DNA of 16,347 nucleotides, from positions 1 through 16,347 of the forward strand of contig JAWDMD010000011.1 of the NCBI GenBank assembly GCA_046536775.1. The letters are read 5' to 3'. Shown piece after piece: positions 1,559 to 16,347 of the stretch. The DNA comes from Candidatus Nanopusillus sp. (GTDB lineage: Archaea; Nanobdellota; Nanobdellia; Nanobdellales; Nanobdellaceae). The first letter of the stretch is position 1; every line of letters begins with the position of its first letter. The translations under genes and the position numbers were made by a program. Under the pieces are notes generated by a model. It was not told where the DNA came from, did no database searches, and saw only the letters and a program-made list of their open reading frames with translations.

Positions 1559-1843
1559 TTTTTTTAATCTTTTTCTTATTTCCAATATTGCATCATGAAT
1601 TGCAGCACCTAAAAATAGAGTTGTTAATATATATAATTCATATAAGTATGTAATCATTCCAATTATTACTGGTATTATACCAAATACTGATAGATATGCA
1701 TGATGTATTTTTGCCCTATATTTTTTTGTATTTGTTTTAATTTCAATAAAGAATTCTGGTGAAAATTTTCTAATTATATAATCTGCTGAGAAATATCCTA
1801 CTAAGAATGATAAACTATAGGTCATTATAGTAATATCGATCAT
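1532..1843 (-). CDS. Small integral membrane protein (about 3 predicted TM segments), function unknown
   Basis: 103-aa ORF with hydrophobic stretches (YSLSFLVGYF, LSVFGIIPVIIGMITYLY, ILTTLFLGAAI) and a basic C-terminus. It is divergent from rps24e with a plausible promoter. Its 3' end overlaps the convergent gene by 27 nt. Confidence 0.55.
   Translation of the reverse strand: MIDITIMTYSLSFLVGYFSADYIIRKFSPEFFIEIKTNTKKYRAKIHHAYLSVFGIIPVIIGMITYLYELYILTTLFLGAAIHDAILEIRKRLKKLDYIKQSK
1559..1578 (+). terminator. Possible oligo-T archaeal termination signal after the surface-protein gene
   Basis: tttttttaatctttttctta (a T7 run then a T5 run) starts directly after the TAA at 1556-1558. Archaeal RNAP terminates at oligo-T runs. 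The tract lies inside the 3' end of the convergent 1532-1843 ORF, and the whole genome is T-rich, so specificity is low. Confidence 0.25.
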
Positions 1844-2382: not shown

Positions 2383-2686
2383 TATAAAATATTTTGGTCC
2401 TATTAGATCTTTTATTGGTTTAATGTTTCAATTACCAAAAGAAAATACAATATATATTTTAGATTTAAAAAAAGATGTTGAAGATGGGTTTGTTCACACG
2501 TTTTTTTGTTTAAAACCATTAGATATTTATCTATATAATTCAAATTTTGAATTGGTCCAATATTCTAAAAAGTTAAAACCATTTAAAATCTTAGTTCCGA
2601 AGAAAAAATTTAGGTATATAATTGAGGGTTTAGATATAAATGATGATATGTTGAATTATACAATAGAATATTTAAAATCTCTGTAA
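2366..2686 (+). CDS. Small conserved hypothetical protein, tentatively DUF192 (COG1430)-like
   Basis: RSFIGLMF...(F)VHTFFCLKPLDIYLYNSNFELV...KFRYIIEG resembles my recollection of the DUF192 pattern: GLM motif, then a WM.xT..PLDiifid-type segment, then a C-terminal yvLE.xxG. This is from memory, not a search. The start overlaps the rps27ae end by 17 nt. Confidence 0.4.
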   Translation: MEYKYNIKYFGPIRSFIGLMFQLPKENTIYILDLKKDVEDGFVHTFFCLKPLDIYLYNSNFELVQYSKKLKPFKILVPKKKFRYIIEGLDINDDMLNYTIEYLKSL

Positions 2687-3058
2687 ATTATTAGTTAATA
2701 TTTCTATTTCTACAAACAATTTATCGATCATGCTTTTTATTTCTTTTATTCCATTATTTATCTGTCCAATTATTTCAACTTTTATGTTTGGTGTTATATA
2801 TGGATTTCCACTTATTTCTTTATAATATAAAGTTATATAATCTTTTATACTCTCTAAAATACTTATTAACAATTTCATTGAATTTATTAAATTATTAACT
2901 TCTTGCATTTGATAATTATATAAATTATATGGATTTCCACTAATATTTTTTTCATATTCATTTAAACTCTCCAATTGCAAAACATAGTTATTTATCTGTG
3001 ATAATAAATTTCTTATTTGAGTTAATAATTGATTTTCTAAATCTTGTATATTATCCAT
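2672..3058 (-). CDS. Coiled-coil protein with a duplicated ISGNPY motif, function unknown
   Basis: 128-aa ORF rich in heptad-like L/I/N/E/Q patterns. There are two copies of ISGNPY (residues 39-44 and 82-87), each preceded by an acidic/lysine segment. The DNA shows the same duplication: tatatggatttccac occurs near 2800 and again near 2930. A TATA-like element lies upstream. Confidence 0.6.
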   Translation of the reverse strand: MDNIQDLENQLLTQIRNLLSQINNYVLQLESLNEYEKNISGNPYNLYNYQMQEVNNLINSMKLLISILESIKDYITLYYKEISGNPYITPNIKVEIIGQINNGIKEIKSMIDKLFVEIEILTNNLQRF

Positions 3059-3787: not shown

Positions 3788-4624
3788 ATGTTTGCACATG
3801 CTCAGGGTGAATATGATAAATCAAAATGGATAATAGTAGGAATTCCATCTGAAATTGGTAGTTTATCTCATATAAAAAATTATATTGAAGGACCTGAATC
3901 AATTAGAGATGCATCATATAGAATATTTTCTCCAGTATTTGGGGATATAAATATGGAAGAAATATACGATTATGGTGATATAGATTTAGAAGATATAAAA
4001 GATCTAGACAAATTATATGAAAAAATATATAATGAAATTAAAAAAATATATAGGAAAGATAAAAAATATATATTTTTGGGAGGAGATCATTCAATAACAT
4101 ATCCAATATTAAAAATTGTTAAAGAAAATTGGGAAGATTTTTATTTATTATATTTTGATGCGCATCCAGACATTCATCCAGATCCTTATCCAAATTATCA
4201 AAGTTTTATTTATCATTTAATAAAAGAAAATTATATTGAACCTGAAAAAATTATTTTTGTTGGTATATCTAATCTATCATTTGAAGAAAAGAATATAATA
4301 AAAGAATGGGGGATAAAATATTATGATCCTTTATATATTTGGGATAATATAAAAGAAATTTCAAGAGAAATATCAAATATATTGGAAAATAAAAATTTAT
4401 ATATTTCAATTGATGTAGATGTATTTGATACAGGATGTGGGCATTGGTTGGAAGGTATTGGAATTAGACCATATCATTATTTTAAGATTATAAAAGAATT
4501 AAGGAATGCTAATTTAATTGGTTTTGATTTGGTAGAATTATTTTCTAATGAGGTATGTGATAATTTAGCTGCAAAAATTATTACTGAATCAATAGCAATT
4601 TTTAATAAATTTATGCAATCTTAA
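3788..4624 (+). CDS. Arginase-family ureohydrolase (agmatinase-like)
   Basis: The family motifs GGDHSITYP, FDAHPDIHP, SIDVDVFD and a late DLVEL are present, so all six Mn-ligand positions (H, D-H-D, D-D) are retained. The segment after DVDVFD (TGCGHW) departs from the usual DPxxAPG. Substrate cannot be assigned from sequence alone. Confidence 0.8.
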   Translation: MFAHAQGEYDKSKWIIVGIPSEIGSLSHIKNYIEGPESIRDASYRIFSPVFGDINMEEIYDYGDIDLEDIKDLDKLYEKIYNEIKKIYRKDKKYIFLGGDHSITYPILKIVKENWEDFYLLYFDAHPDIHPDPYPNYQSFIYHLIKENYIEPEKIIFVGISNLSFEEKNIIKEWGIKYYDPLYIWDNIKEISREISNILENKNLYISIDVDVFDTGCGHWLEGIGIRPYHYFKIIKELRNANLIGFDLVELFSNEVCDNLAAKIITESIAIFNKFMQS

Positions 4625-5258
4625 AATATGTTTGATTAATTCTTTCTAAATATACTGTTGCAAGTTGATAAAATGTAATATTATTTATCGAATAACATGG
4701 TATATAATTGCATATAATATTTCCATTTGTATTTTCTGTACATGTAATATTTTCGGATAAATTTGTTGGAAATAGAAATACAAATGTTTGATTTGAAGTA
4801 CTTTCGTTACTCAAACAAAAATAATATAAAAAATAGTAAAAATCTGAATAATAATTTTTACATATGGTTAATTTAATATAATCCAAAGAATAAGCTATAG
4901 AAATTGGATATTCATATGTATTGCAATTTCCATTAAAATTTATTATTCCAAAACCATAATTGTCTATTTCTGCTCTAAATGCATAAGGAAATATTGTACA
5001 ATTTGGAAGTTCATTATAATATGTTTGATTAAATTGTTCTATTTTTTCTAATGTTGTAAAATATACTGGATAATTTGGATATCCTAAACAATTTGGAGAA
5101 AATAAATCATATAGTATATCCTGTTCATATGAAAAAGATGTTTGCTCTTTATAATTTGTTAAATTTATATTGGAAAATACAGCTAATAAAATTATCATTC
5201 CAACTAAAAATAATACAATTAATATTGTTATAAATACTATAGATAATTGTTCTTTCAT
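4611..5258 (-). CDS. Exported cysteine-rich protein with an N-terminal hydrophobic anchor or pilin-like leader (last gene of the cluster)
   Basis: The N-terminus MKEQLSIVFITILIVLFLVGMIILLAVF has a short charged n-region followed by ~23 hydrophobic residues. There are 8 Cys (hand count) and several N-X-S/T sequons. The 3' end overlaps the convergent ureohydrolase gene by 14 nt. Confidence 0.7.
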   Translation of the reverse strand: MKEQLSIVFITILIVLFLVGMIILLAVFSNINLTNYKEQTSFSYEQDILYDLFSPNCLGYPNYPVYFTTLEKIEQFNQTYYNELPNCTIFPYAFRAEIDNYGFGIINFNGNCNTYEYPISIAYSLDYIKLTICKNYYSDFYYFLYYFCLSNESTSNQTFVFLFPTNLSENITCTENTNGNIICNYIPCYSINNITFYQLATVYLERINQTYFKIA

Positions 5259-5267
5259 CCTATTTAT

Positions 5268-6575
5268 TTATCTTATAATTCCACGTCCTCCACCTCCACC
5301 ACCAGATCCACCCCCACTATTTTGTCCACATGAAGATTGACTAGGTGGTTGTGGTACACATTGATTTGGGAAAGATATGGTTTCTGGACATGTTTGGCTT
5401 GGGCATTCTCCAGGTGAACAGACAGGACATAGAGAAGAGCCAATTATACAATTATAACATTTAATTGAGATTGAATAATAATATGGAAATGTATATGTTA
5501 ATTCGCAATCTTGTTGATTTACATTTACATTACCACAACCATTCTCATAAGAACATGAATATTGCTGATTTTCTAATGTACAACTTTCAGATATTACTTG
5601 ATTGTTTGTTAGATTATACGTTTCAGTACATTTATATATACAATTTAAAAAATAATAATATGTTATATTTTCATAAAAAACAATAGAAGAAATTATTATT
5701 GTTTGTGGATAAGTATTGCCATTATAATATACATTATATTGGTTATCAGAACATTTTAATATTACCCTGCATGCAATTCCCTGTGGATATAAACATGCTT
5801 CGCATGATGGAATATTTACACATCGATATGGAATTATCGTTTCATTACATTGAATATAAGGATTATTTGAAAATTGCTCAAAATCTTGTGCACAATTATT
5901 GGTTGTAACATGATTATATATTTCATTATAGCAATCTTGATATGAGCATTCTGAAAATTCTCCATTTTCAGAAAATTGAAATGCTAAATTATATAAATAA
6001 AATGCAGGATTGTTTGTTATATTTGATGTAGTTGCATATGGAATTATAGAACCTGAAGAAGGACCAGTAATATTTATATATAATCCTTGAACATAAACAG
6101 GAAAATTATAATTGTATTCTCCAGAAGTTATATTACTGCAATCTCCAAAAACTCCTGCTTGATAATTATTTGAAAAATTGAAAGATATGTTATAAGGATA
6201 ATAATATTGATATGCAGTTAAATATTGTCTTCCAAAACTTAATAAAGTTTCAAATCCAGAAGTTAGCAAATTATTATAATATTGAAGTGCATTTTCACAT
6301 TTTTGGGGTAGTTTACACCAGTAGGGATAAGAAGCCCAATTTTCCTTCCCCCATCCATTTGTCCCTGCTACATATGATTCTGCATAACCTTCTTGTGTTA
6401 ATAATGTTTGTAAATATCCTAAAAAATAGTTTGATAATGTAGATAAAGAAGTAAACCTATTAAAAACAATATTTTGATTATAATTATACGTCAATGCATA
6501 AAAAGATAAAAGAATTATTAATATAGCAATTGTTAGAAATAAAACTACATAAATGACTTCTGCCTGATTCTTCAT
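5268..6575 (-). CDS. Exported, extremely cysteine-rich protein with a Cys/Pro-rich C-terminal module and a poly-Gly tail
   Basis: The N-terminus is MKNQAEVIYVVLFLTIAILIILLSFYAL. There are 26 Cys (hand count). The C-terminal 63 aa are CYNCIIGSSLCPVCSPGECPSQTCPETISFPNQCVPQPPSQSSCGQNSGGGSGGGGGGRGIIR. The start overlaps the upstream gene's end by 4 nt. Confidence 0.75.
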   Translation of the reverse strand: MKNQAEVIYVVLFLTIAILIILLSFYALTYNYNQNIVFNRFTSLSTLSNYFLGYLQTLLTQEGYAESYVAGTNGWGKENWASYPYWCKLPQKCENALQYYNNLLTSGFETLLSFGRQYLTAYQYYYPYNISFNFSNNYQAGVFGDCSNITSGEYNYNFPVYVQGLYINITGPSSGSIIPYATTSNITNNPAFYLYNLAFQFSENGEFSECSYQDCYNEIYNHVTTNNCAQDFEQFSNNPYIQCNETIIPYRCVNIPSCEACLYPQGIACRVILKCSDNQYNVYYNGNTYPQTIIISSIVFYENITYYYFLNCIYKCTETYNLTNNQVISESCTLENQQYSCSYENGCGNVNVNQQDCELTYTFPYYYSISIKCYNCIIGSSLCPVCSPGECPSQTCPETISFPNQCVPQPPSQSSCGQNSGGGSGGGGGGRGIIR

Positions 6576-7783
6576 ATTTTTAATTTAACATGCAAATATA
6601 TAAATGTTAATATAAGGATTGGTGTTACTAATCCATGTATAATTCCAAGCGCCATTAATATATTTGGTATAGATATTAGATATATACTACTTGATCCTCC
6701 AAACAATACTGATTCGAGGAATTCTCCAGTTATAGTTTGTAATAAGATTAAAATACCAATAGACATACCTAAAGCTTTTGTAATTACTCTTTTGCTATTT
6801 CTATATATTTTATAATGAATTCCCATAAAGAAAAACAATAAGGCAATTAAATATCTAGTATGTAAAGCTACAGAAATAAAATCTACATTTGATAAATATA
6901 GTTCTCCAAAAAATATTATTAAGACCACTGTTATAAGCAAAAAATAGTTTGTTGGTATATTATATTTTAAATTTCTATAAACTAAAAAGTAAATTATAAA
7001 TTCGTATATAGATAAAAATATTAATGATTCATATTCGTAGATACTATATTCTCCAACAGAGCTTTCTATAATTAGATTATTATAAATTGATAATTTATAT
7101 ATGGTTATGATAGATTGTAATATTATTATAAAAAATATTAATAAAAATATATACTTTTTGTATTTATAGATTTTTGATATCTTTTCAAATATTTTTGTTC
7201 TTACTATTAATATTTCATTGCTATTAAAATACATAACTAGAAATAGAAATATGGCAAATATAATAAATAAAGATGAATATAATATTTCTAAAATATGAAG
7301 ATGCAAATATAAAAAGACAAAGAATAAACTTGCTATATATCCTACTACCATATCTAGATCTGTAGTTGCAGAATTATATATTAATTCAAGAAAAAATAAT
7401 ATTATAAATAATATTATTGAGATTATATAAAATATTAATGATTTTTTTGAAATGTAAAAGTTATTTTCAAATAAATAATATCCCATAGAAAATGCTATAA
7501 AATAAAATACCCAATAATTTACTATATAAGTAAATATTGATGAAAATGGAAATGGTAAAGGCAAATTGGTATAAATCCCAAAAATTCCAATTGGTATATA
7601 TAATGGGAATATTAATTTATATATTAAAGATGTATTTTTCGAATTCTTTAATATAAAAGATAATAAGAATAAATATATTGTACCAAAAATAATTATATTA
7701 ATATTTAAATTGCTAATATAAATAAAAAGTAAAAACAATATTAAATATATAAGAAATAAAATTTTGTCTTCTTTTTTTACCAT
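6572..7783 (-). CDS. Polytopic integral membrane protein (about 10-12 TM segments), function unknown
   Basis: 403 aa, almost entirely hydrophobic F/I/L/Y stretches broken by short K/N-rich loops, with no cysteine at all. I recognised no AglB WWDYG motif and no A24 GxGD motif. It sits between exported-protein genes with 4-nt and 7-nt overlaps. Confidence 0.7.
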   Translation of the reverse strand: MVKKEDKILFLIYLILFLLFIYISNLNINIIIFGTIYLFLLSFILKNSKNTSLIYKLIFPLYIPIGIFGIYTNLPLPFPFSSIFTYIVNYWVFYFIAFSMGYYLFENNFYISKKSLIFYIISIILFIILFFLELIYNSATTDLDMVVGYIASLFFVFLYLHLHILEILYSSLFIIFAIFLFLVMYFNSNEILIVRTKIFEKISKIYKYKKYIFLLIFFIIILQSIITIYKLSIYNNLIIESSVGEYSIYEYESLIFLSIYEFIIYFLVYRNLKYNIPTNYFLLITVVLIIFFGELYLSNVDFISVALHTRYLIALLFFFMGIHYKIYRNSKRVITKALGMSIGILILLQTITGEFLESVLFGGSSSIYLISIPNILMALGIIHGLVTPILILTFIYLHVKLKI

Positions 7784-9408
7784 ACTGTTAATTCAGCAAC
7801 TAAATATCCGCCTAAAAATGATACATCTACTGGTAGATATATATAATAAACATATGTATTAGTATTTGGAGGTATTGGATATCCTAGACTTATACTTTCT
7901 CCACTACCTTGATAGATATATGCATTTAATTCTTCTTTATTTCCAGTATTTGTAATACAATATGCTCTTGCCATTGCAACACCATTTCCCCCAGGATGAG
8001 GATCATAATATACTGCAGAAATTATAAATTGATTTGTATTTGGATCTCTATCATCTATTACCCATTTAGTAATATTAAATCTATAAAATCCTTCGCTGTT
8101 TATATTAATATTTCCTAAGTAAACCAAAGGACATTCTTTTCCCACAATAATTCCACTTACATTTTTTATATTATCAGATACACCAGTTGGGCAATCTATT
8201 ATCTCTCCACTTAGATTATATTCACAAAAAGGATCTGCTGCTAAAAATACATAATCTGGTTCTCCGCTTATATTTAAAAATGAAATATACAATCTTATTA
8301 CCTCATGCCATGGGTAATCTATAAATACTTGCTGACAATTTGGTGGTATATTTACTACACCTCTATAAAAAGCTCCAACAATTAATTCCTGACTACCTCC
8401 GCACTTAGAATTACCTGTATAATCTGTACTAAATTCTTCTTGACATATTTCATTTAAATATTGTTGTGGGATTATAAATTCTGCTAATCTATTTATATCA
8501 GTAGCAGTTTTATAAATAGGGGGGCCTTGATAATAATATGGTGTTAGATTTAGATATGGATTATCAGTTACAGGACATGGGCCCTCCTTATAATGGCATA
8601 GATATCCTGAAAAGAAATTAGGTAAATAAGATGTAGGTTGTGCTGGCATATTATCTCCACTCAAATAATTTGGAAATAAATTCCATTCAGTTTGGGGACA
8701 ATATACAGAAGCGTTTGTAAAATTATAATTTGGAAATATTTCTGATAGAGGTGTACAGTATCCAAGTTGTATAGCTAGAGATTGATTCATTCCATTATAT
8801 AATGTTGGTAATCCCCATGACTCTGTTGATTTAGATTGATGAAATGGTGCTGTTGCATTTACCCATCCTGCTCCATATAAAGTTTGACTTACTGGTATAT
8901 TAATATTTTCTACATAATTATTTACAAAGAAATATGTATAATTCCATTCATACCATTGTGTACCATCTGGATCTGGTGGAGGATTCATTGAACATGGATC
9001 CCAGTTGTTAAGATTACCACCTACTATAAACATTTGAACAACCCATCCAGTTACTGGTGGGATAAAATATATAGTTAAATTCCATCTATTTCCATATATA
9101 CTATTAAAATAATTTATTAAATCTTCTGATATGTTTGTACACGTGTTTTGATTTATGCAATATGTATCATTTTCAGAAGATGAAAAATATGATAATAAAA
9201 ATGCATAGGATAAATTAACATTATGATCGTAAATATAAGGTAATAAATCAATGCTATTTTGAATTGTTAATGTATATTGATTTTCTACATTATATGTTTG
9301 TGTTATTTTAGAACTAGAACTGGTTGATAATAAATAAACTAAAAGAATTGATAAAATTATTATTGAAATAATAACAACAAATGCTAATGTATTTATTTGA
9401 TTTTTCAT
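7777..9408 (-). CDS. Large exported cysteine-rich protein with an N-terminal hydrophobic anchor or pilin-like leader, unknown fold
   Basis: The N-terminus is MKNQINTLAFVVIISIIILSILLVYLL. 543 aa, 14 Cys (hand count), many sequons, and Pro/Trp/Tyr-rich segments such as NWDPCSMNPPPDPDGTQWYEW. I recognised no catalytic motif. Confidence 0.75.
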   Translation of the reverse strand: MKNQINTLAFVVIISIIILSILLVYLLSTSSSSKITQTYNVENQYTLTIQNSIDLLPYIYDHNVNLSYAFLLSYFSSSENDTYCINQNTCTNISEDLINYFNSIYGNRWNLTIYFIPPVTGWVVQMFIVGGNLNNWDPCSMNPPPDPDGTQWYEWNYTYFFVNNYVENINIPVSQTLYGAGWVNATAPFHQSKSTESWGLPTLYNGMNQSLAIQLGYCTPLSEIFPNYNFTNASVYCPQTEWNLFPNYLSGDNMPAQPTSYLPNFFSGYLCHYKEGPCPVTDNPYLNLTPYYYQGPPIYKTATDINRLAEFIIPQQYLNEICQEEFSTDYTGNSKCGGSQELIVGAFYRGVVNIPPNCQQVFIDYPWHEVIRLYISFLNISGEPDYVFLAADPFCEYNLSGEIIDCPTGVSDNIKNVSGIIVGKECPLVYLGNININSEGFYRFNITKWVIDDRDPNTNQFIISAVYYDPHPGGNGVAMARAYCITNTGNKEELNAYIYQGSGESISLGYPIPPNTNTYVYYIYLPVDVSFLGGYLVAELTVW

Positions 9409-10238
9409 TTTAGATAATATAAAAGAATAACTAGGCCTATTATTATAATTACTATTATTATTGCTATTGGTAAAACTAAATTAACATTATTACTTTTATT
9501 ACTTACATTTGGTTGTGGATAAATTAATTGCTGATTATTTGTTTGATTGTTTGTTAGATTTACTTGAGTCTGATTTATGCATTTAAATATACCAGTACAT
9601 GATATATAAATAATATTTGGTGGTGGACATTGCTGTAAAAATTCTTGATATAATTGATTTAATGAATAATTATATGGGCATCTAAACCAATCTCCTTCGA
9701 ATGATAAGTTTTCTGGACAATATCCGCACATATATTCTATTTTATATACATCTAATACTGTCTGATATGAAGCATTATCTGTCAAATAAGAAGGTGGTAT
9801 ATATGGTGGATTAAAACATGGATAGATTTGATTTGAACATGGTTGATAATACCAGGGTGTATTTGAACAATTTAGCAAACTATTACATATTATGAGTGGT
9901 GTAGGTATAATTAGGTCTTGATATGCTGATGGAGGAATTAATACATATGGACTGACTAATGTTCCATTTGGATATTCACAATAACTACTATTTACATATA
10001 TTAATCCATAATGAGCACAGAAAGAATATTGGGGTGGTACTTCATTTTCATAATATTGTATAGCATCAAAATATGTACCATTTACAATACAATAAGAACC
10101 TGTACTATTTGTATAATATGTTCCTCCGCCATATTCACAATAAACTGCTAATGGATTTATCATGGAATGTATATTATAAAGTAAAGATATAAAAATAATT
10201 ACAAATAATAATATTTTTCTATTGTGTGAGAGTAACAT
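9405..10238 (-). CDS. Type I membrane protein: Sec-type signal peptide, Cys/Pro-rich ectodomain with a tentative tandem DUF333-like motif, and a C-terminal TM anchor
   Basis: N-terminus MLLSHNRKILLFVIIFISLLYNIHS. It is followed by INPLAVYCEYGGGTYYTNSTGSYCIVNGTYFDAIQYY and a weaker repeat, FCAHYGLIYVNSSYCEYPNGT. These resemble the NPAsvYC..GG....G.C....G pattern I recall for DUF333. There are 14 Cys. The C-terminus is LVLPIAIIIVIIIIGLVILLYYLK. Confidence 0.7.
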   Translation of the reverse strand: MLLSHNRKILLFVIIFISLLYNIHSMINPLAVYCEYGGGTYYTNSTGSYCIVNGTYFDAIQYYENEVPPQYSFCAHYGLIYVNSSYCEYPNGTLVSPYVLIPPSAYQDLIIPTPLIICNSLLNCSNTPWYYQPCSNQIYPCFNPPYIPPSYLTDNASYQTVLDVYKIEYMCGYCPENLSFEGDWFRCPYNYSLNQLYQEFLQQCPPPNIIYISCTGIFKCINQTQVNLTNNQTNNQQLIYPQPNVSNKSNNVNLVLPIAIIIVIIIIGLVILLYYLK

Positions 10239-11829
10239 TTTGGATTGCTATAACTAAATAAGGAAATGATAAGCCATAAGGAGATTGATCAAATGGTACG
10301 TATACATATCCATCTTGTATCAAGTAAACACCTCCACATGGTTCACCAATTTCTTCACTACAAAACGTATAGTTTGAGTAAAGTTTGTGGCATATTTTTA
10401 GATATTTCTCATAACATAACTGATAATTTAAATAATATTCATAGCACTCCTCCATAAATATATTATAAAGAAGGACGTGTGGTCCACCACTTTGATCGAG
10501 AATATAGCATTCTGATACGTCTCCCCACTGGTTTTCAAATATCCAACAGTTGGGAGTCCCATATACTTCTTGGCATAGTTGAGATTGTTCGTCATATCCA
10601 ACTAATAGCATAGAATGTCCAGTGCTTTCTATAAATCCATTAGGGTTAGGATATATATTTGGATTAGATCCGCCTGTCCCCCCCAGTATTCCACCAACTA
10701 CTAATGGTCCATAACATAATAAATCTTGGATTATTTGTTGATCGGATAAAGGTCCATTTTGTGAAAGAAAGATAACGCCTTTCGAATAATACAATGGAGA
10801 GCTAGGTCCATTATAATTAAAATTACATACATCACCTGGATAGCTATCATAGTTCTGATATTCTTCTTGTGGACAATGATTTCCTAAAGTAGATTCATAA
10901 TAGCTCCATCCAGGATCAGGTGGTATACCATATTGAGATGTATAATATATTTCATAATATAAACCAGAGATTATAGGAATACCATTTTCAGCAAAAATAG
11001 TCTCACTACCCTTACAACCACTATTGTACTCACAATAACTTGGAGCGTTTGGATAACCATTATTACATTCTATTGCTAAATATGCTGGAGATAGTTGTAA
11101 TCCTTCATTGGGTTTATCATTTCTTATCATATATACTGAAGCAATTCCATTTGCACTAGCAAATGCCCAGCAATCTCCACAATATCCTTGATCTCCTATT
11201 GGAGGTAAATAATTATTTCCATTTACATCACCCCAGAAAAAACTTGTCTGTCCAGTATATTTAACTAGACATTGAGCATTTTGATTAATATTGTTGTTAT
11301 TTCCTTGATTATTTCCTCCATTATTATTACTACTTCCTCCATTGTTTTGATTATTATTGTTTTGATTGTTTTCTGGAGTTATATATATAAGAGTTCCATT
11401 TGGTAAATATTCATTTAATATTGCAATTGAATTTTGAAGATTTGTTGTAATAAAAACAGTATTATTTGTACTAACAAGATATATATAATTGTTTGGATAT
11501 AGAAAACTCACATTTTGATTATTATTATATAATGTTACATTCTTGTAAAAATTAATTGTATAATTGTTATTATTATATTGTATTATTAATTCAGTACCAT
11601 TTGTATATAATATAACTCCACTTGGTATATTAACTTTTACATAATATGTACCTTGAATACTATTTATTGTATTCTCTAAATTTTGTAAATTATTAATAAA
11701 ATTTTCAAATATTAAATTTTCTTGTTGTTTTTTAACATTCATAGAATATTGATAATATATTATAAAAGCTAAAGATATAATTACTAATATTATTGCTACT
11801 GAAAGCAAATTTAATTGATATCTTTTCAT
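10219..11829 (-). CDS. Papain-family (peptidase C1) cysteine protease fused to an N-terminal pilin-like anchor, a beta-rich N-domain and an Asn/Gly linker
   Basis: DQGYCGDCWAFASANG (Gln214, nucleophile Cys220 followed by Trp; Cys codon at 11170-11172), GHSMLLVGYD (His405) and ENQWG (Asn433) reproduce the papain Q-C-H-N motif set in the correct order and spacing. The N-terminus is MKRYQLNLLSVAIILVIISLAFIIYY. There are 17 Cys (hand count). Confidence 0.85.
   Translation of the reverse strand: MKRYQLNLLSVAIILVIISLAFIIYYQYSMNVKKQQENLIFENFINNLQNLENTINSIQGTYYVKVNIPSGVILYTNGTELIIQYNNNNYTINFYKNVTLYNNNQNVSFLYPNNYIYLVSTNNTVFITTNLQNSIAILNEYLPNGTLIYITPENNQNNNNQNNGGSSNNNGGNNQGNNNNINQNAQCLVKYTGQTSFFWGDVNGNNYLPPIGDQGYCGDCWAFASANGIASVYMIRNDKPNEGLQLSPAYLAIECNNGYPNAPSYCEYNSGCKGSETIFAENGIPIISGLYYEIYYTSQYGIPPDPGWSYYESTLGNHCPQEEYQNYDSYPGDVCNFNYNGPSSPLYYSKGVIFLSQNGPLSDQQIIQDLLCYGPLVVGGILGGTGGSNPNIYPNPNGFIESTGHSMLLVGYDEQSQLCQEVYGTPNCWIFENQWGDVSECYILDQSGGPHVLLYNIFMEECYEYYLNYQLCYEKYLKICHKLYSNYTFCSEEIGEPCGGVYLIQDGYVYVPFDQSPYGLSFPYLVIAIQNVTLTQ
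11278..11373 (-). repeat. Low-complexity Asn/Gln/Gly linker inside the protease gene
   Basis: Encodes ENNQNNNNQNNGGSSNNNGGNNQGNNNNINQN (residues ~153-184), between the N-terminal domain and the peptidase domain. At DNA level it consists of imperfect att/gtt/tcc-type triplet reiterations. Confidence 0.8.
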
Positions 11830-11865
11830 TATGAGTTAATAATATTTAAAAAATTTTAAAAATTT
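11830..11865 (-). promoter_or_regulatory. Possible internal promoter ahead of the protease gene
   Basis: This is the only sizeable gap (36 nt) inside the 12-gene cluster. The minus strand reads aaatttttaaaattttttaaatattattaactcata-ATG, with TATA-like ttttaaaa/tttaaata about 15-30 nt upstream of the ATG at 11829. Confidence 0.3.
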
Positions 11866-12306
11866 TTAACTTGGATTTTCTATATAAACAGTTACTTCTG
11901 TTGGAGATGTTTTTTCAACAAGTAGTGGTATTTTTTCATTTGTATTTCCATACGATAATTCGTAAAATAATCCAGAAGTATAATATTGAATTGTACTATT
12001 TGTTGTATTTATTATTACATTGCATGGTAATGTATAATTGTAATATTCATCATATATATAACAACTTAATAAATTATTATTAGCATAAATATAATTTAAA
12101 TATTTGTTTATTTCAATATTAATATAAAATTTTGTTCCAGTATTTGAATAACATACCCTTTCAATTGTTGTATACAAATTTTGACATGATGAAATATCCT
12201 GATATAATAATTGAGTCTGATTATTTATACTTGAAAATTTAAAATATAAATATAAAGATAAACCAAAAGCAATAATTGTTACAATTATCCAAAACCACTT
12301 CTCCAT
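11866..12306 (-). CDS. Small exported protein with an N-terminal hydrophobic helix (minor-pilin-like), function unknown
   Basis: 146 aa. The N-terminus is MEKWFWIIVTIIAFGLSLYLYF, there are 4 Cys, and the remainder is beta-strand-like and Y/N/I-rich. Confidence 0.65.
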   Translation of the reverse strand: MEKWFWIIVTIIAFGLSLYLYFKFSSINNQTQLLYQDISSCQNLYTTIERVCYSNTGTKFYINIEINKYLNYIYANNNLLSCYIYDEYYNYTLPCNVIINTTNSTIQYYTSGLFYELSYGNTNEKIPLLVEKTSPTEVTVYIENPS

Positions 12307-12308
12307 TT

Positions 12309-12722
12309 TTATCCTTGAACATTAATATAAACATAATTTCCTGCCGAATATACTAATATATATTCTCCCGTATTTATATTATAATTGCAATTTTGCATTA
12401 CTACATTTGGATCTATACTACTTACATTATTTATTAAATCCTGACATGTAAATGGTTCCCCCTGATAATTAATTAAATAACAAAGGCCCTGGGCTTTTTT
12501 ATAATAGCATGCTACTACATCCATTGCAACATCTTGTATTGAAGTTACATTTGTTTCTACTACAGTTTGTGTATTATTATATTTTGGCATTATACTACTA
12601 ATGTAGGAAGTTATATTTCCTCTTAATAAAAATATTATTCCTAAAATTACTACTGTGACAATTATTCCTATAATTATTAAAAATGTATAATTAATTGGAA
12701 GTTCTTGAGACTTTATTGCCAT
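12309..12722 (-). CDS. Small exported protein with an N-terminal hydrophobic helix (minor-pilin-like), function unknown
   Basis: 137 aa. The N-terminus is MAIKSQELPINYTFLIIIGIIVTVVILGIIFLL, and there are 4 Cys. It carries a D..xxVVACYxxxxxxLCY motif similar to that of the neighbouring 159-aa protein. The C-terminus is YILVYSAGNYVYINVQG. Confidence 0.65.
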   Translation of the reverse strand: MAIKSQELPINYTFLIIIGIIVTVVILGIIFLLRGNITSYISSIMPKYNNTQTVVETNVTSIQDVAMDVVACYYKKAQGLCYLINYQGEPFTCQDLINNVSSIDPNVVMQNCNYNINTGEYILVYSAGNYVYINVQG

Positions 12723-13192
12723 ATTACAATATAACTATTGTTGTATATTATAAATATACTATTGTATGGATATATATTTCCATCACTATTATTTAAATGG
12801 AATATAATATTATTTGGATTAAATGTAGTATAATTTTGTATATATTGAATTAATATTGATGAATTCAGAATAATATTCTCATCTATATAAACATCATAAC
12901 ATATATTAAATAATTTATTTGTATTTACATTATTATTGTAGCAATTTAATATTAATCCTGTTATATCTGAATAAATTGTATCATTACTTTCATTTGTATA
13001 CATAATATTTATCGCTGAAGGATAATATTTTTCACATGATGGAGAAAAACCGCCTTGTGATATTAATGTTTGACAATAATATGCTTGAGAATTGCCAAAG
13101 AATTTTGTAAAAATAATATCTAATATAACTACAACAGATATTATTGCTATTATAATAATAAATACAGTATCTATTGCTATATCATTCTTCAT
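12713..13192 (-). CDS. Small pilin-like protein with a probable class III signal (A|ID junction)
   Basis: 159 aa. MKNDIA-IDTVFIIIIAIISVVVILDIIF shares the small-residue-then-ID junction with the 255-aa protein (G-ID). There are 4 Cys. It contains ...ITGLILNCYNNNVNTNKLFNICY, and the C-terminus is IFIIYNNSYIVIWQ. Confidence 0.65.
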   Translation of the reverse strand: MKNDIAIDTVFIIIIAIISVVVILDIIFTKFFGNSQAYYCQTLISQGGFSPSCEKYYPSAINIMYTNESNDTIYSDITGLILNCYNNNVNTNKLFNICYDVYIDENIILNSSILIQYIQNYTTFNPNNIIFHLNNSDGNIYPYNSIFIIYNNSYIVIWQ

Positions 13193-13473
13193 ATATAATT
13201 AATACTTCCGTTATAAATATATATAATTCTATAGCCTGCAGGTATTGTTATTCCATTTATTGTACAATTTTCATTAAGAAATACTTTAATATTAATTATT
13301 TCCTGAAAACTTTTATTATATAGATTTTCTAACTGTTGGCAATTAATTGTTTGTATACTATTACCACTTAAATTATTTTTTATATTATAAATATAATAAA
13401 AAGAAAATAAGCCAGCAGCTATAATTAATATAAAAGTTATTATAATCCAATATATTGATTGTTGCAATTTCAT
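13189..13473 (-). CDS. Small exported protein with an N-terminal hydrophobic helix (minor-pilin-like), function unknown
   Basis: 94 aa. The N-terminus is MKLQQSIYWIIITFILIIAAGLFSFYY, there are 2 Cys, and the C-terminus is GYRIIYIYNGSINYI. It has 4-nt ATGA-type overlaps with both neighbours. Confidence 0.6.
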   Translation of the reverse strand: MKLQQSIYWIIITFILIIAAGLFSFYYIYNIKNNLSGNSIQTINCQQLENLYNKSFQEIINIKVFLNENCTINGITIPAGYRIIYIYNGSINYI

Positions 13474-15440
13474 AATTGTATACTTGTTGGTAAATATGGG
13501 CCAAATACTGTATATACTATCAATATTCCTATTATTGAAAATATTACATAAAATATTGTTCCAAATAATAAATTTCTACCTATATAATATGATGTCATTG
13601 TATTATCAAATCCATATTTTATTCCAGCACTCATATATGAAGTTATTATTACATATTCTATAAAGAATATACCAATTATTGCTTCAAAAAATGTTGGTGG
13701 TATTAAATTGTATAGATTAAATGTATTTACAATGAAATTGAATAAGTTTGTTCCTCCACCAAGACCAAAAGATTGGTCTATTAATTGAAAGAAATATGCA
13801 AGTGCAAAAAGCATAGAAACTACTCCATTATTGAAAATTGTAACCATTGCAGAAATTAATGGTACTAAATTTCTTGATGTCATGTCTATCAATCCAATTA
13901 TTTCATTTAATATTTTTCTTACATTATATCTTATATTATCTACATTTTCTAAATTTGTTGATACATTATATGCAATTTTTGATAAAACCTCAGGACCTTT
14001 TGATGCAGAAGTGACTAAAAGTTGCATAGATTCTCTTACTAATTTTGATGGATATAGATTTAATGAACCAATTTTTGGATCAAATACAGAAATATTTAAA
14101 TCATAACCTCTTCTTAAATTATATAGTGTAGTTTTTAGAAAGTTTTCCATAACTCCAGATGATTTTATTATTTTATAATTATAATATGTTTTTTCAATTA
14201 CTATTTCAAATGGATATCCATCTTCTAATAATGATGCGAATTCATATACAACAATTGGAAACTCATTTTCTATTTCTTCAATTTGATATATTTTTTTAAC
14301 TTTTTGGAAAGATGTTAAATAATAGTAAGATCCCACACCCAAACCCAATCCTAAAGGTAATGTTAAAGTTAAAACAGAATATATTAATGCTCTATCCTGG
14401 TAAACTATATTTAAATACTCACTCAAAAATCCCTGTGGAATAAATGTAATCCTTATAGCTAGAGAAACTAAATGATATATTCCCAAAACTGCAATTGATC
14501 CTAATATTATTGAAATTATTATTGCTGGAACTTCTTTATTTCCAATTTTAAATTTTCCAGGTTTTGGTAAATCTCTTGCTAGGGATAAATCAGGAACAGA
14601 AAATGCAAATGGATTTTTTGATAAGAAATTTTGAATTATTAGAAATGTAATAACTGGTAAAATTATTATATATGAAAATGCTATGAAATAGAAACTTACG
14701 GTATTTAGTAAAAATACAGATATTATTGGTAGCATCATCAAACTAACTATTGGCATCATTACTAAGAAAGATACTATAACTGTTGCAGGTTCTCTTAAAG
14801 CATCTACATATAACTGGGATTTTTCTAGGGATTTCTTTAATACCCAACCTAAAATTCTATCTAATAATCTATTTATGTCATCAATAGATGTTTTATATTT
14901 AATGTTTACAATATGTGTCATTGCATATACAAAATCTGGACTTAAATAAAACCATCTTCTCTGATAATATTCTAATGCTGATTCAATATCAGTAAATTTA
15001 TTTGTTTCTAAATTATATAATAGTGATCTAAAGTCTGTTGCAATATAACCTTTCATGTAATATGCTACATATTTTATTCCATTCTCTAAATTAGGATTTC
15101 TTTTTAGATATAATGATAAATATAGAATTATCCATACAATTTCTGATGTTACTTGTATTCTAACAACCTGTGTATAGAATATTGGATAATATGCAAAATA
15201 GAATGATAAAATTAATAAAGATATTAACAAAGAAAAAGCAAATTGAAAGCTTACAAAACTTAGAATGAAATATATGATTATAGAAAATGATATAAGAGTT
15301 ATTACAGAAGAAAATATATTATCTGGATTTGTATTTAATCTATTTAACCATAAATGAAATGCATATTTTTTATATATTGGACCAGGAGCTTTTAGTTTTA
15401 TTAAATTAAAATTATTATAAAAATATTCAAAAAAATTCAT
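13470..15440 (-). CDS. FlaJ/ArlJ-TadC-PilC-like polytopic membrane platform protein of a type IV filament system
   Basis: 656 aa with the FlaJ architecture: TM bundles alternating with two soluble helical domains. Domain 1 ends in ...LYVDALREPATVIVSFLVMMPIVSLMMLPI, like the T2SSF ..EP..i....vg.iv....lPi segment. Domain 2 has EFPIVVYEFASLLEDGYPFE...LYNLRRGYDLNISVF...YPSKLVRESMQLLVTSASKGPEVLSKIA, like the T2SSF l..G.sl..a...fP..l...i..ge.sG.l...L pattern. It has no cysteine. The match is by eye, not by HMM. Confidence 0.65.
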   Translation of the reverse strand: MNFFEYFYNNFNLIKLKAPGPIYKKYAFHLWLNRLNTNPDNIFSSVITLISFSIIIYFILSFVSFQFAFSLLISLLILSFYFAYYPIFYTQVVRIQVTSEIVWIILYLSLYLKRNPNLENGIKYVAYYMKGYIATDFRSLLYNLETNKFTDIESALEYYQRRWFYLSPDFVYAMTHIVNIKYKTSIDDINRLLDRILGWVLKKSLEKSQLYVDALREPATVIVSFLVMMPIVSLMMLPIISVFLLNTVSFYFIAFSYIIILPVITFLIIQNFLSKNPFAFSVPDLSLARDLPKPGKFKIGNKEVPAIIISIILGSIAVLGIYHLVSLAIRITFIPQGFLSEYLNIVYQDRALIYSVLTLTLPLGLGLGVGSYYYLTSFQKVKKIYQIEEIENEFPIVVYEFASLLEDGYPFEIVIEKTYYNYKIIKSSGVMENFLKTTLYNLRRGYDLNISVFDPKIGSLNLYPSKLVRESMQLLVTSASKGPEVLSKIAYNVSTNLENVDNIRYNVRKILNEIIGLIDMTSRNLVPLISAMVTIFNNGVVSMLFALAYFFQLIDQSFGLGGGTNLFNFIVNTFNLYNLIPPTFFEAIIGIFFIEYVIITSYMSAGIKYGFDNTMTSYYIGRNLLFGTIFYVIFSIIGILIVYTVFGPYLPTSIQL

Positions 15441-15444
15441 TACA

Positions 15445-16212
15445 TTAGCTTGTTGTGCTTGGTATATTATTTAACTGGGAATATGGTACTTGCAATAAGA
15501 ATTGACATAATGGCATTCCATTTGCATTATTACTTATACCCAATGCTGCGCAATTTCCATTAACTATTAATACTCCAGTACTAACATTAACTGTTAAATT
15601 CAAATTACATCCATTTGCACTATTATAATAGTTAATAATCTTTAATAATGCACCAAATACCTGGTTTGTAATCCATGTTGGTAATTGTGCAGAACATTGT
15701 ACTGGACCTGGATTTAATATTGAAGATGGAGAAGAAATTTGAATGTTTGCTTGTCCGGATGCTACATTAAATGATGTAGTAGGAGAATAATTTCCGAATA
15801 CATAACTTGTTGCTTGTTCTGGGCTATAATATAAATTATCAATATAATTTTGACATTCTATATACATGCAATCGAGAGGTGTTATTGTATATCCCTGATA
15901 TTGACATTGACTAGAAGGGCCACCATATAATTGTAATAATACACTGCATGGGACAGCATTTGAACAAATATAATACCCAGGACTTACCTGTACAAGTCCA
16001 TTTCCTATATCTTCATACTTTGTACAAAATGTTGCTTGATCTGAACAATAACTTGAGCAATCTGAAACTGCCTGTTGTATTTGTGTATTTGATATTTGAC
16101 TAATCTTTGATGATTGCTGCTGGAATAACTTAATTACAACAACTGCTACTACTAACATTATTATTATTACAAATATTAACTGTACAGCCATATCTATACC
16201 CCTTCTTTTCAT
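15445..16212 (-). CDS. Type IV pilin-like protein with a canonical archaeal class III signal peptide (candidate major filament subunit)
   Basis: MKRRG|IDMAVQLIFVIIIMLVVAVVVIKLF has a basic n-region, Gly at -1, then ~25 hydrophobic residues and a Q-rich helix extension (QQQSSKISQISNTQIQQAV). The globular part carries 12 Cys (hand count). It is the first gene of the cluster, directly upstream of the FlaJ-like gene. Confidence 0.7.
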   Translation of the reverse strand: MKRRGIDMAVQLIFVIIIMLVVAVVVIKLFQQQSSKISQISNTQIQQAVSDCSSYCSDQATFCTKYEDIGNGLVQVSPGYYICSNAVPCSVLLQLYGGPSSQCQYQGYTITPLDCMYIECQNYIDNLYYSPEQATSYVFGNYSPTTSFNVASGQANIQISSPSSILNPGPVQCSAQLPTWITNQVFGALLKIINYYNSANGCNLNLTVNVSTGVLIVNGNCAALGISNNANGMPLCQFLLQVPYSQLNNIPSTTS

Positions 16213-16248
16213 AATTAAGGATAAATATTTTATTCTTTATAAATATTT
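16213..16248 (-). promoter_or_regulatory. Probable promoter of the cluster
   Basis: The minus strand reads aaatatttataaagaataaaatatttatccttaatt-ATG. tttataaa lies about 24-31 nt upstream of the ATG at 16212, and there is no SD-like sequence. The 10-mer aaatatttat occurs twice in the 36-nt spacer. Confidence 0.4.
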
Positions 16249-16347
16249 TTAGTAGTATATAATAAACTCCATATCCCTTTCATTCCTTAATCTTTCTACC
16301 AATCTTCTATCAATATCAATAGCACTCTTATTTGAATTTATTGCCAA
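16249..16347 (-). CDS. 3' end (32 codons) of a minus-strand gene that starts beyond the window; identity unknown
   Basis: The frame is open from the window edge to the TAA at 16249-16251 and encodes LAINSNKSAIDIDRRLVERLRNERDMEFIIYY*. It is hydrophilic and charged, unlike the exported proteins downstream. It is too short to identify. Confidence 0.4.
   Translation of the reverse strand: MAINSNKSAIDIDRRLVERLRNERDMEFIIYY

Follow-up and report, generated by a model that had tools for sequence, protein, structure and literature searches.

Gene content and conservation of the cluster

The window, meaning the whole stretch of 16,347 nucleotides that was analysed, carries on its minus strand a run of twelve co-directional genes (4611-16212, from the ORF listing). 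Table 1 lists these genes and their features. The genes overlap by 4, 4, 10, 20, 4, 7 and 4 nt or are separated by gaps of 4, 2, 36 and 9 nt. This layout, together with the protein sizes and cysteine counts, had been given in an initial annotation of the sequence, and all of it matches the ORF listing and the protein features. Upstream of gene 1 there is a DUF371-type gene with its stop codon at 16249-16251, and a TATA-like box, TTTATAAA, can be read from the sequence with its centre about 28 nt upstream of the gene 1 ATG at 16212. As the genome is very AT-rich, we only infer that this box is a candidate promoter of the cluster.

Table 1. Features of the twelve-gene cluster, with their positions in the window.
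Feature	Coordinates	Strand	Description	Basis
TATA-like box	16236..16243	-	TTTATAAA, candidate cluster promoter	in the 36-nt spacer from the upstream DUF371-type gene to gene 1
Gene 1	15445..16212	-	255 aa, candidate major pilin, 12 Cys	class III signal MKRRG/IDMAVQL
Gene 2	13470..15440	-	656 aa, FlaJ/TadC/GspF-type (T2SSF) polytopic platform, 0 Cys	profile links, model match
Gene 3	13189..13473	-	94 aa, small pilin-like (MKLQQ...), candidate minor pilin, 2 Cys	leader, helix
Gene 4	12713..13192	-	159 aa, small pilin-like (MKNDIAID...), candidate minor pilin, 4 conserved Cys	leader, helix
Gene 5	12309..12722	-	137 aa, small pilin-like (MAIKS/QELP...), candidate minor pilin, 4 conserved Cys	leader, helix
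Gene 6	11866..12306	-	146 aa, small, N-terminally anchored (MEKWFW...), 4 Cys	helix
Gene 7	10219..11829	-	536 aa, modular protein, 17 Cys	domain search, orthologue comparison
Peptidase_C1 domain of gene 7	10519..11217	-	catalytic domain, residues 205-437	Pfam E 8.5e-14
Gene 8	9405..10238	-	277 aa, short Sec signal peptide, C-terminal membrane anchor, 14 Cys, 13 sequons	protein features
Gene 9	7777..9408	-	543 aa, large exported protein, MKNQIN anchor, 14 Cys, 14 sequons	protein features
Gene 10	6572..7783	-	403 aa, orphan polytopic membrane protein, 0 Cys	protein features
Gene 11	5268..6575	-	435 aa, exported, MKNQAE anchor, 26 Cys, Gly-rich C-terminal tail	protein features
Gene 12	4611..5258	-	215 aa, exported, MKEQLS anchor, 8 Cys, 9 sequons	protein features

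For all twelve genes, eight other Nanopusillaceae loci contain orthologues, and these follow the same order. The genes are therefore not scattered among relatives, a result that the initial annotation had named as one that would speak against its reading. When compared with two strains that are about 90-95% identical in DNA, dN/dS lies between 0.06 and 0.39 across the cluster, and purifying selection acts on all twelve genes. Gene 2 is the best conserved (54-97% identity, dN/dS 0.09-0.10), and in every locus it stands at the same place and is coupled by 4 nt to the gene that follows it. For genes 1 and 9, dN/dS is 0.29-0.37 and 0.28-0.30, respectively. Between close strains, genes 7-11 diverge most, with identities of 71-87% compared to 96-97% for the platform.

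Platform, ATPase and protease

The product of gene 2 had been called a FlaJ/TadC-like platform, with a T2SSF profile search proposed as the check. There was no direct Pfam detection of T2SSF on the 656-aa product, and the domain is reached through relatives only. Using HMMER, the product matches the proteins P0010 (E 4.6e-58), P0012 (2e-51) and P0013 (4.6e-50). With a Pfam T2SSF cut-off of 25.2 bits, P0010 and P0012 score 36.6 and 26.5 bits in their C-terminal halves, both above the cut-off, and P0013 scores 24.2 bits in its N-terminal half. When the platform family profile was searched against the PDB sequences, EpsF/GspF were the only matches. The AlphaFold model of gene 2 (pLDDT 85.4, pTM 0.82) matches the EpsF cytoplasmic domain with a probability of 0.99 and a TM score of 0.70, and a PilC model with a probability of 0.63. 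Therefore, the gene 2 product is a member of the FlaJ/TadC/GspF (T2SSF) platform family, although its own sequence does not return the Pfam match.

Platform relatives in Aenigmarchaeota and Woesearchaeota stand directly behind a T2SSE ATPase. In loci L003, L004, L005 and L014, the gene of a 740-772-aa ATPase, which an intein lengthens to 1249 aa in L004, runs up to or into the platform gene, with overlaps of 32 nt in L003 and L004, 4 nt in L005 and 17 nt in L014, and the two genes are translationally coupled. Proteins with MKG/, KKG/ or KRG/Q starts then follow in L003, L004 and L014, and large cysteine-rich proteins of 363 aa (16 Cys), 462 aa (18 Cys) and 819 aa (39 Cys) belong to this series. 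No homologue of the cargo of our cluster was detectable in the Aenigmarchaeota or Woesearchaeota loci.

The flanks were also inspected for a FlaI/PilB/VirB11-type ATPase and an A24 prepilin peptidase, as the initial annotation had suggested. Neither gene was found in the window nor, in eight related Nanopusillaceae loci, at less than 10 kb from the platform. A Nanoarchaeota single-cell genome contains several FlaJ/TadC and FlaI/VirB11 genes (PMC6142677), and for two nanoarchaeal genomes (2016) several secretion ATPases are reported, with no A24 peptidase found (PMC4858521). Since type IV pilus components of Nanoarchaeota had already been mentioned in general terms (PMC6142677), the word undescribed holds for this cluster but not for such components as a whole.

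The gene 7 protein starts with an anchor module (about residues 1-145). After it come an N/G-rich linker and the papain-family catalytic domain, and the C-terminal extension is rich in Cys. Peptidase_C1 scores 52.6 bits against a Pfam cut-off of 20.7, which confirms the papain-like protease proposed earlier. In a residue-by-residue alignment with cathepsin K, the catalytic Gln, Cys, His and Asn are in place (DQGYCGDCWAF, GHSMLLVGY, ENQWG), and the papain-type catalytic domain is intact. In YN1 the C1 domain is carried by a gene 6-type module instead of the gene 7 module that carries it here, and KM4331-08 lacks it. Judged from these sequences, the protease domain behaves as a cassette that is joined to different anchor modules in different species.

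N-termini of the exported products

A single N-terminal hydrophobic helix, starting within residues 4-15, was found in nine of the ten non-polytopic products. The exception is gene 8, with a shorter Sec-type signal and a C-terminal anchor. It is the only Sec-type product of the cluster and shows that ordinary signal peptides of this archaeon look unlike the pilin-like N-termini. Every exported product contains cysteines (Table 1) and 3-14 N-x-S/T sequons, and both polytopic proteins (genes 2 and 10) are free of cysteine.

In gene 1, a hydrophobic helix of 20 residues comes after the signal, and the helical stretch continues to about residue 54. Across five lineages the signal reads KRG, KRS, KRA, KRA and KRS before [ILV][DE]MA, with position -1 limited to G, S or A and position -2 to K or R, and gene 1 accordingly carries the canonical class III signal assigned to it from the start. 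In its single-sequence AlphaFold model (pLDDT 44.8), helices span residues 4-38 and 42-54 and the rest is of low confidence; the N-terminus also gives a weak GspG match (E 0.069).

In genes 3-7, 9, 11 and 12, an uncharged helix of 16-36 residues is preceded by a leader that is basic, ultrashort and conserved. Most orthologues of genes 3, 5, 7, 9, 11 and 12 retain the form M-[KR]-x-Q, with the remaining sequence down to 26-38% identity. For example, Q4-I5-N6 is invariant across seven orthologues of gene 9, and K-[S/N]-Q occurs in four of five gene 5 orthologues; the gene 6 leader departs from M-[KR]-x-Q in four of five lineages. By profile comparison, the N-terminal region of gene 3 is similar to the ones in genes 11 and 12 (probability 57-68%), and gene 4 resembles gene 5 across about 103 columns (hhalign probability 58%). 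A canonical prepilin peptidase requires G, A or S at the residue before the cleavage site. In the M-K-x-Q families the Q is preceded by N, S, A, G, T, L, V, E or Y, outside G/A/S in most families, and it may be that the helices are neither cleaved nor polymerised at all. The pilin-like layout put forward in the initial annotation is common to these products and kept among orthologues, but the residue before Q mostly departs from the rule. None of the pilin, archaellin and class III models of Pfam and NCBIfam scores on any product, nor does ArlC-H or any other archaellum family, in line with the earlier view that this is not an archaellum.

Gene 8 contains a Cys motif, NPLAVYCEYGGG, that resembles DUF333, with a match below threshold (E 0.019). 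Family searches with genes 9 and 11 gave no recognisable family. For gene 10, only 7 relatives were found among 1.84 billion representative proteins; its invariant residues include His, Arg and Glu and no Asp, and in YN1 a paralogue comes after the cluster.

Interpretation of the cluster

In our reading, the cluster is a type IV filament (TFF) locus that has become detached from its ATPase and that displays modular pilins in a Candidatus Nanopusillus-like archaeon. It would derive from a DPANN-wide system in which a T2SSE ATPase and a FlaJ/TadC-type platform are combined with a series of class III-signal proteins. We assign this joint reading a probability of about 0.6. Such a filament would probably be used for host contact.

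A surface-protein island is an unlikely alternative, and the one that survives best. Here the helices would be uncleaved type II signal anchors that tether glycoproteins and the protease under the S-layer, and the platform-like gene, co-transcribed as a scaffold or left as a relic, would serve some function other than building filaments. Such an island fits with the absence of an ATPase or peptidase from the locus and its surroundings, with the conserved Q being preceded by more than small residues, with the lack of any pilin model match and with the low confidence of the gene 1 model beyond the helix. On the other hand, the platform would then hardly be the most constrained gene (dN/dS about 0.1) with its position and coupling kept in all loci, and the -1 residue of gene 1 varies among G, S and A only. 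Other DPANN platforms are coupled to an ATPase and canonical class III proteins, large Cys-rich ones included, and a plain anchor is not expected to conserve K-x-Q at the extreme N-terminus.

With still lower probability, the products could belong to the attachment organelle of Nanobdellota, as structural parts of its 7-8 nm intercellular filament or tube or as portal components. The cluster is present in YN1, which builds the organelle (PMC11420986). The literature as of 2026 assigns no genes to the organelle, its filament width of 6.6-8.2 nm is inside the pilus-like fibre range, and a protease would suit the finding that the host S-layer is displaced. However, the 14 matches of the platform search are Nanopusillaceae or relatives at 22-29% identity, and Nanobdella aerobiophila, a species with this organelle, gave no close homologue, even if divergent copies could escape the search. 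The organelle filament also reportedly runs from the symbiont cytoplasm or a barrier into the host cytoplasm, a placement different from that of type IV filaments.

A type II secretion-like exporter, with genes 1 and 3-6 as a pseudopilus piston and the protease and Cys-rich proteins released as soluble effectors towards the host, is improbable: the GspF/EpsF cytoplasmic domain as the only PDB sequence match of the platform, the weakly GspG-like N-terminus of gene 1 and a hydrolase encoded beside large exported proteins would suit it, but the supposed cargo shares pilin-like N-termini with the supposed pseudopilins, whereas T2SS substrates are exported by Sec or Tat, folded and then pushed out, and no GspC, GspL or GspM-like part scores in profile searches of the cluster products. 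A secretin is also missing, and no outer membrane stands in the way, the envelope of these cells being a membrane and an S-layer (see also PMC11420986).

For the type IV filament locus, we propose that the N-terminal helices would insert the products into the membrane and that a secretion ATPase encoded elsewhere would dock on the gene 2 platform. Together they would raise the helices from the bilayer and assemble them as a pilus or as a short pseudopilus resembling a bindosome, with gene 1 as the shaft and genes 3-6 as the complex that primes it or forms its tip. The large products would be modular pilins that expose the cysteine protease and disulfide-rich glycoproteins outside the cell, and genes 8 (Sec-dependent, anchored) and 10 (orphan membrane protein) may be accessory parts. 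This display would likely serve to recognise the host cell and to digest its proteinaceous S-layer locally. The cluster thus provides testable candidate genes for how the tiny, host-dependent Nanopusillus cells grip and open their hosts.

Layout and conservation of the gene cluster

The initial annotation had described twelve co-directional genes with almost no intergenic space, and the list of open reading frames (ORFs) on the minus strand reproduces them exactly in position and size, with overlaps of 4, 4, 10, 20, 4, 7 and 4 nt and gaps of 4, 2, 36 and 9 nt at the junctions. The single N-terminal helix claimed for nine of the ten non-polytopic products was also recovered in a hydropathy scan, and the tenth product (gene 8, 277 aa) carries a shorter Sec-type signal and a C-terminal anchor. 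Both polytopic products are free of cysteine, while the exported ones contain 2-26 cysteines, an even number in all but one, and 3-14 N-x-S/T sequons each. When all twelve products were scanned against Pfam and NCBIfam, Peptidase_C1 was the sole match above threshold, and ten products concatenated as one homology-search query returned no match. G+C content is 20-32% across the window, and genes for an arginase-family enzyme, a uracil-DNA glycosylase (UDG) and the archaeal ribosomal proteins S27ae and S24e lie on the left flank. The 482-aa ORF on the plus strand, outside the cluster, is probably another glycosylated surface protein. The coordinates of the cluster and of other features in the window and in the loci of relatives are collected in the table.

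Features of the window and of related loci, with positions prefixed by the locus handle where they lie outside the window
Feature	Location	Strand	Remark
Twelve-gene cluster	4611-16212	-	
Platform gene (gene 2)	13470-15440	-	656 aa
Genes 7-11	5268-11829	-	
Asn/Gly-rich low-complexity linker of gene 7, NNQNNNNQNNGGSSNNNGGNNQGNNNN	11250-11400	-	joins anchor module to protease domain
Low-complexity C-terminal end of gene 11, GGGSGGGGGGRGIIR	5268-5330	-	
482-aa ORF, very rich in N-x-S/T sequons, C-terminal hydrophobic anchor …GLIGIGGLILGLFALFNII	110-1558	+	sub-threshold DUF11-repeat match
103-aa small membrane protein	1532-1843	-	no family; between ribosomal protein genes and UDG gene
128-aa predicted coiled-coil protein	2672-3058	-	no family; between ribosomal protein genes and UDG gene
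Differences in the protease module, YN1	L001:13201-14940 and 15785-16210		
Differences in the protease module, KM4331-08	L007:13201-13971		
Second gene 10-like polytopic membrane protein, YN1	L001:21375-21971		immediately after the cluster
Gene 10-like fragment, KM4331-08	L007:20995-21582		
Module upstream of the ATPase gene, distant DPANN loci	L003:4821-7703, L004:3383-6224, L014:4756-7440		part co-directional with the ATPase gene in L014
Intein-split ATPase gene, distant DPANN locus	L004:6283-10032		LAGLIDADG endonuclease domain in the intein
Hydrolase genes beside homologous pilus-like loci	L003:18346-20355; L004:21312-22046; L005:2346-5623		

Synteny, on which the initial annotation had made its proposal depend, is kept. 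The same gene order is found in RSNS15, RHS.bin.5, KM4331-08, the complete genome of the cultivated YN1 (AP031373) and at least two more assemblies, and in these Nanopusillaceae loci the cluster is always flanked by the RNA polymerase operon, RimK and DUF371 on one side and by the arginase gene on the other. The genome scan was made with two peptide patterns; N. aerobiophila and N. equitans are not among the matches listed, which is not evidence of absence. At the DNA level the window is 90-95% identical to the 'Candidatus Nanopusillus sp.' RSNS15 contig and 87-93% identical to RHS.bin.5. Protein identity across the Nanopusillaceae loci is 54-97% for the platform and ranges from 26% to 98% for the other products, with the lowest values between close strains in genes 7-11 (71-87%).

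All twelve genes are under purifying selection. Against the two closest strains, no gene reaches a dN/dS of 0.4; the platform has 0.09-0.10, the small proteins lie within 0.06-0.22, and genes 1 and 7-11 span 0.18-0.39. In the comparison of the window with loci L010 and L011, dS is 0.23-0.54 for genes 7-11 and 0.06-0.26 for genes 1-6 and 12, which is a tendency, as the two ranges overlap. The raised dS and the divergence of genes 7-11 together suggest that the cargo half has exchanged alleles or recombined, or that it carries older alleles.

The platform protein and the search for an ATPase

The assignment of gene 2 as a FlaJ/TadC-like platform, for which T2SSF homology had been named as the deciding point, held by an indirect route: gene 2 itself has no direct Pfam match to T2SSF, and membership in the family was reached through its relatives, a profile and a structural model. 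The HMMER relatives P0010, P0012 and P0013 are related to gene 2 at E 4.6e-58, 2e-51 and 4.6e-50, respectively. Against PF00482, for which the gathering score is 25.2 bits, the C-terminal halves of P0010 and P0012 score 36.6 and 26.5 bits, and the N-terminal half of P0013 scores 24.2 bits. When the profile of the platform family was searched against PDB sequences, only the cytoplasmic domain of EpsF/GspF was matched (E 0.034). An AlphaFold model of gene 2 built from a 14-sequence alignment (pLDDT 85.4, pTM 0.82) was matched by Foldseek to EpsF with probability 0.99, TM 0.70 and rmsd 3.1 Å, and to the PilC model of the type IVa pilus machine with probability 0.63; the global E-values of this model are poor because full-length platform structures give no alignment. 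An internal duplication of the platform was also considered, but at the sequence level it is not significant (hhalign probability 3.7%).

Homologous platforms are coupled to an ATPase in more distant DPANN genomes. In four distant relatives (two Aenigmarchaeota-type, one metagenomic and one Woesearchaeota), a gene for a 740-772-aa T2SSE ATPase abuts or overlaps the platform gene with its 3' end, and the platforms of three loci (L003, L004 and L014) share 24-29% identity with gene 2 at E 1e-28 to 1e-64. From the PF00482 scores of the relatives, the EpsF profile match, the model and these ATPase-coupled relatives, we accept gene 2 as a polytopic platform protein of the GspF/PilC/TadC/FlaJ (T2SSF) family, the kind of platform found in loci of the type IV filament (TFF) superfamily.

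These three Aenigmarchaeota/Woesearchaeota loci resemble the cluster in having the homologous platform followed by small and large Cys-rich helix-bearing proteins. They differ in that the ATPase gene is kept adjoining or overlapping the platform gene, the signals are canonical (K-G↓ or KRG↓Q), the cargo is non-homologous, and a conserved divergent module is kept upstream of the ATPase gene. This module comprises three paralogous 170-210-aa proteins with FxFxxPFLL...YGLL[RK]K, a protein of about 215-238 aa and a coiled-coil protein of about 130 aa, and it is absent from the Nanopusillaceae loci. Apart from these differences, we observed that an intein with a LAGLIDADG endonuclease domain splits the ATPase of L004 as well as P0016-P0018, P0055, P0078 and others; the intein-bearing forms, found in many Aenigmarchaeota-type sequences, are 1249-1287 aa long and the uninterrupted form about 745 aa.

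The initial annotation had proposed a search of the flanks for an ATPase, and this came out negative: none of eight Nanopusillaceae loci has a T2SSE ATPase gene within 10 kb of the platform gene. Pfam and NCBIfam scans of the window found neither an ATPase of the T2SSE/VirB11/ArlI family nor an A24 two-Asp prepilin peptidase, and with the Aenigmarchaeota ATPase as query the best 120 matches contain only other DPANN lineages and no Nanopusillaceae. In published TFF models the ATPase, platform and peptidase are mandatory and usually co-located (Makarova, Koonin & Albers 2016; Sivabalasarma & Albers 2026 preprint); in the cluster, ATPase and peptidase are not co-located with the platform. Nanoarchaeal genomes do encode such ATPases. 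Besides its archaellum ATPase, strain Nst1 encodes three clade-2 ATPases and a single clade-4 ATPase (PMC4858521, supplement), and in a Yellowstone Nanoarchaeota genome several T2SSF/FlaJ genes are listed alongside at least two of the FlaI/VirB11 type (PMC6142677, supplement). A 2016 census of two nanoarchaea found secretion ATPases present, and did not find pilins and prepilin peptidase (PMC4858521).

Gene 10, the only polytopic product without an assignment, was weighed as the missing A24-type prepilin peptidase. An exhaustive search of 1.84 billion representative proteins gave seven relatives, all of the same kind. The invariant residues of gene 10 include His, Arg and Glu, and it is ruled out as an A24-type enzyme because no Asp is invariant. 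As a separate observation, gene 10-like sequences also occur at the end of the loci of YN1 and KM4331-08 (see the table).

N-termini and cargo of the exported products

The first gene carries a canonical class III signal. Its N-terminus is MKRRG↓IDMAVQL both in the window and in the two Nanopusillus metagenome-assembled genomes, and it is MKKRS↓IEMAVEL, MKKRA↓VDMAVEL, MRKRA↓LDMAIQL and MGKRS↓IDMAVQL in four other lineages, which gives the pattern [KR]R-[G/S/A]↓[ILV][DE]MA over five lineages. According to work on PibD and FlaK, the substrates of archaeal prepilin peptidases need a basic residue at -2 and may have no residue other than G, S or A at -1. A single-sequence AlphaFold model of gene 1 has a pLDDT of 44.8, with the helix alone confident.

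On the other hand, the other eight anchored families begin in most orthologues with the ultrashort leader M-[KR]-x-Q (M-K-x-Q below), followed by 16-36 uncharged residues. The residue x, at -1, is mostly N or S, with A, G, T, L, V, E and Y also found. The Gln is replaced by D or I in gene 4 and in some orthologues at locus L009, and gene 6 begins with MEKWFW in four of the five lineages. Q4-I5-N6 of gene 9 is invariant in seven orthologues, as are Q4 and E6 of gene 11 in its orthologues, and several of the N-terminal regions are linked by profile-profile comparison with a probability of 57-72%. These eight products share an N-terminal design that is conserved. In the Aenigmarchaeota/Woesearchaeota loci, the proteins downstream of the platform, some of them large and Cys-rich, begin with MKG↓, KKG↓ or KRG↓Q-x-E; given these class III starts, the M-K-x-Q of Nanopusillaceae looks like the same design with the Gly at -1 replaced. 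When profiles made from orthologue alignments of genes 1, 4, 5, 9, 10 and 11 were searched against the PDB, they yielded either no match or matches at chance level.

The protease is borne by gene 7. PF00112 (Peptidase_C1) matches it at E 8.5e-14 with 52.6 bits (cut-off 20.7), and the alignment with cathepsin K pairs CGDCWAF with CGSCWAF, GHSMLLVGY with NHAVLVVGY, and ENQWG with KNSWG. By its sequence, gene 7 is a member of peptidase family C1 (papain) with the catalytic Gln-Cys-His-Asn residues intact. The product consists of an anchor module of about 145 residues, an N/G-rich linker and the C1 domain, in that order. In YN1, a gene 6-type module bears the C1 domain together with its C-terminal extension (39% identity), and the anchor module of the gene 7 type is a stand-alone 141-aa protein; in KM4331-08, the gene 6-type protein is without a protease domain. 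Both genomes have two extra genes, one for a 141-143-aa protein that copies the anchor module of gene 7 and the other for a 172-175-aa protein that copies the N-terminal domain of gene 8. Since the C1 domain sits on different anchor modules or is absent depending on the lineage, the protease is a cassette moved between anchors, and such movement is how modular pilins behave.

For genes 9, 11 and 12, no family was found in Pfam, NCBIfam or PDB sequences. They also appear to have no homologues in the distant loci, as profiles of the cluster families matched only N-terminal helices when run against every ORF of these loci, those of the Aenigmarchaeota included. Gene 8 contains, after its signal peptide, a DUF333-like Cys motif with a below-threshold Pfam score, and it is this domain that YN1 and KM4331-08 have in a second, separate gene.

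Comparison with known systems and a possible role in host contact

The system would work in the manner of an archaeal type IV filament whose subunits are functionalised. Its nearest paradigms are the bacterial modular pilins, the Sulfolobales bindosome and those adhesive pili of archaea in which accessory genes lie downstream. With the archaeal adhesive pili, especially TFF subsystem 4A, in which accessory genes follow the platform, it shares a FlaJ/TadC-type platform, tight gene coupling, a putative class III-signal pilin as the first gene, and genes for small pilin-like and large surface proteins downstream of the platform. It differs from them in being without an ATPase gene, in that most subunits start with M-K-x-Q rather than [KR]-[G/A/S], in that one subunit bears a papain-type protease, and in that its accessory proteins match no known arCOG or Pfam family of pilins or adhesins.

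The Sulfolobales bindosome (BasEF, BasABC) likewise has large functional proteins with pilin-type N-termini, thought to be mounted on a TFF base (PMC4858521), and polytopic membrane proteins of unknown role in its locus (PMC4858521 supplement). Its cargo consists of class III-signal solute-binding (sugar-binding) proteins served by BasEF and joined by an ABC transporter, whereas that of the cluster is a predicted protease and orphan Cys-rich glycoproteins; it keeps ATPase and platform together and disperses the cargo, whereas the cluster keeps the cargo with the platform and would have its ATPase elsewhere. Membership is ruled out, as Pfam and NCBIfam found no solute-binding or ABC domains in the cluster, and the likeness is in principle only. 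In bacteria, PilB and PilC of Streptococcus sanguinis and the type IVb proteins CofB and TcpB carry a bulky functional module on a pilin, which sits within or at the tip of the pilus and is adhesive. The cluster shares with these modular pilins a pilin-like module with a grafted functional module, and differs in its archaeal-type N-termini and in that incorporation into a fibre is only putative. To our knowledge, none of the examples has a catalytic module of the papain family on a pilin-like anchor.

A type II secretion system does not fit, as the Pfam and NCBIfam scans gave no scores for a secretin or for GspC/L/M and the putative substrates have pilin-like rather than Sec-type N-termini. 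The archaellum is ruled out because no product scores in these scans for archaellin (ArlB), ArlF/G, ArlH, ArlI, ArlJ, ArlC/D/E or ArlX; for YN1 and N. aerobiophila, archaellum genes have been reported separately.

In a filament with functionalised subunits, an ATPase encoded in trans would power the platform, and the N-terminal helices would be pulled from the membrane to form either a pilus or a short pseudopilus of the bindosome type. Gene 1 may form the shaft, genes 3-6 the priming or tip set, and genes 7, 9, 11 and 12 the modular pilins, which would display the protease and the disulfide-rich glycoproteins.

Nanobdellota (Nanoarchaeota) serve as models for archaea that live as obligate ectosymbionts. 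[quoted passage not shown] We infer a possible role of the cluster in host contact from the obligate ectosymbiotic life of the organism, from the fastest divergence in the cargo half, and from the M23, M15_4 with SLT, and C25 hydrolases near the DPANN homologues. The full set of these hydrolases, namely Peptidase_M23, Peptidase_M15_4 with SLT and Peptidase_C25 with M28, parallels the papain-type protease of the window.

A bolder reading is that the cluster encodes the 'missing' nanoarchaeal TFF pilins, with an N-terminus of a new kind, and that their fibre is part of the Nanobdellota attachment apparatus. For both to be true together is improbable, and we put it at roughly one chance in eight. 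The three-residue M-K-[N/S] leader before the invariant Gln would then either escape cleavage or be removed by an enzyme with no relation to A24 prepilin peptidases, and the host S-layer would be opened at the contact site by the pilin-borne papain-type protease.

Type IV pilus genes of Nanoarchaeota have previously been noted in general terms only (PMC6142677; 2026 YN4 preprint), and we found no description in the literature of the cluster, of the M-K-x-Q proteins or of a pilin-anchored papain-type protease. The cluster is a concrete, conserved gene set: next to the platform it encodes one candidate pilin with a canonical signal and eight pilin-like proteins of atypical form, with a predicted protease on a swappable pilin-like anchor. 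As it is found in the cultivated YN1, it offers candidates for proteomics, labelling and biochemistry. If the M-K-x-Q proteins are indeed filament subunits, searches for archaeal pilins would have to apply broader sequence rules, and enzymes would be added to the known cargo of type IV filaments.
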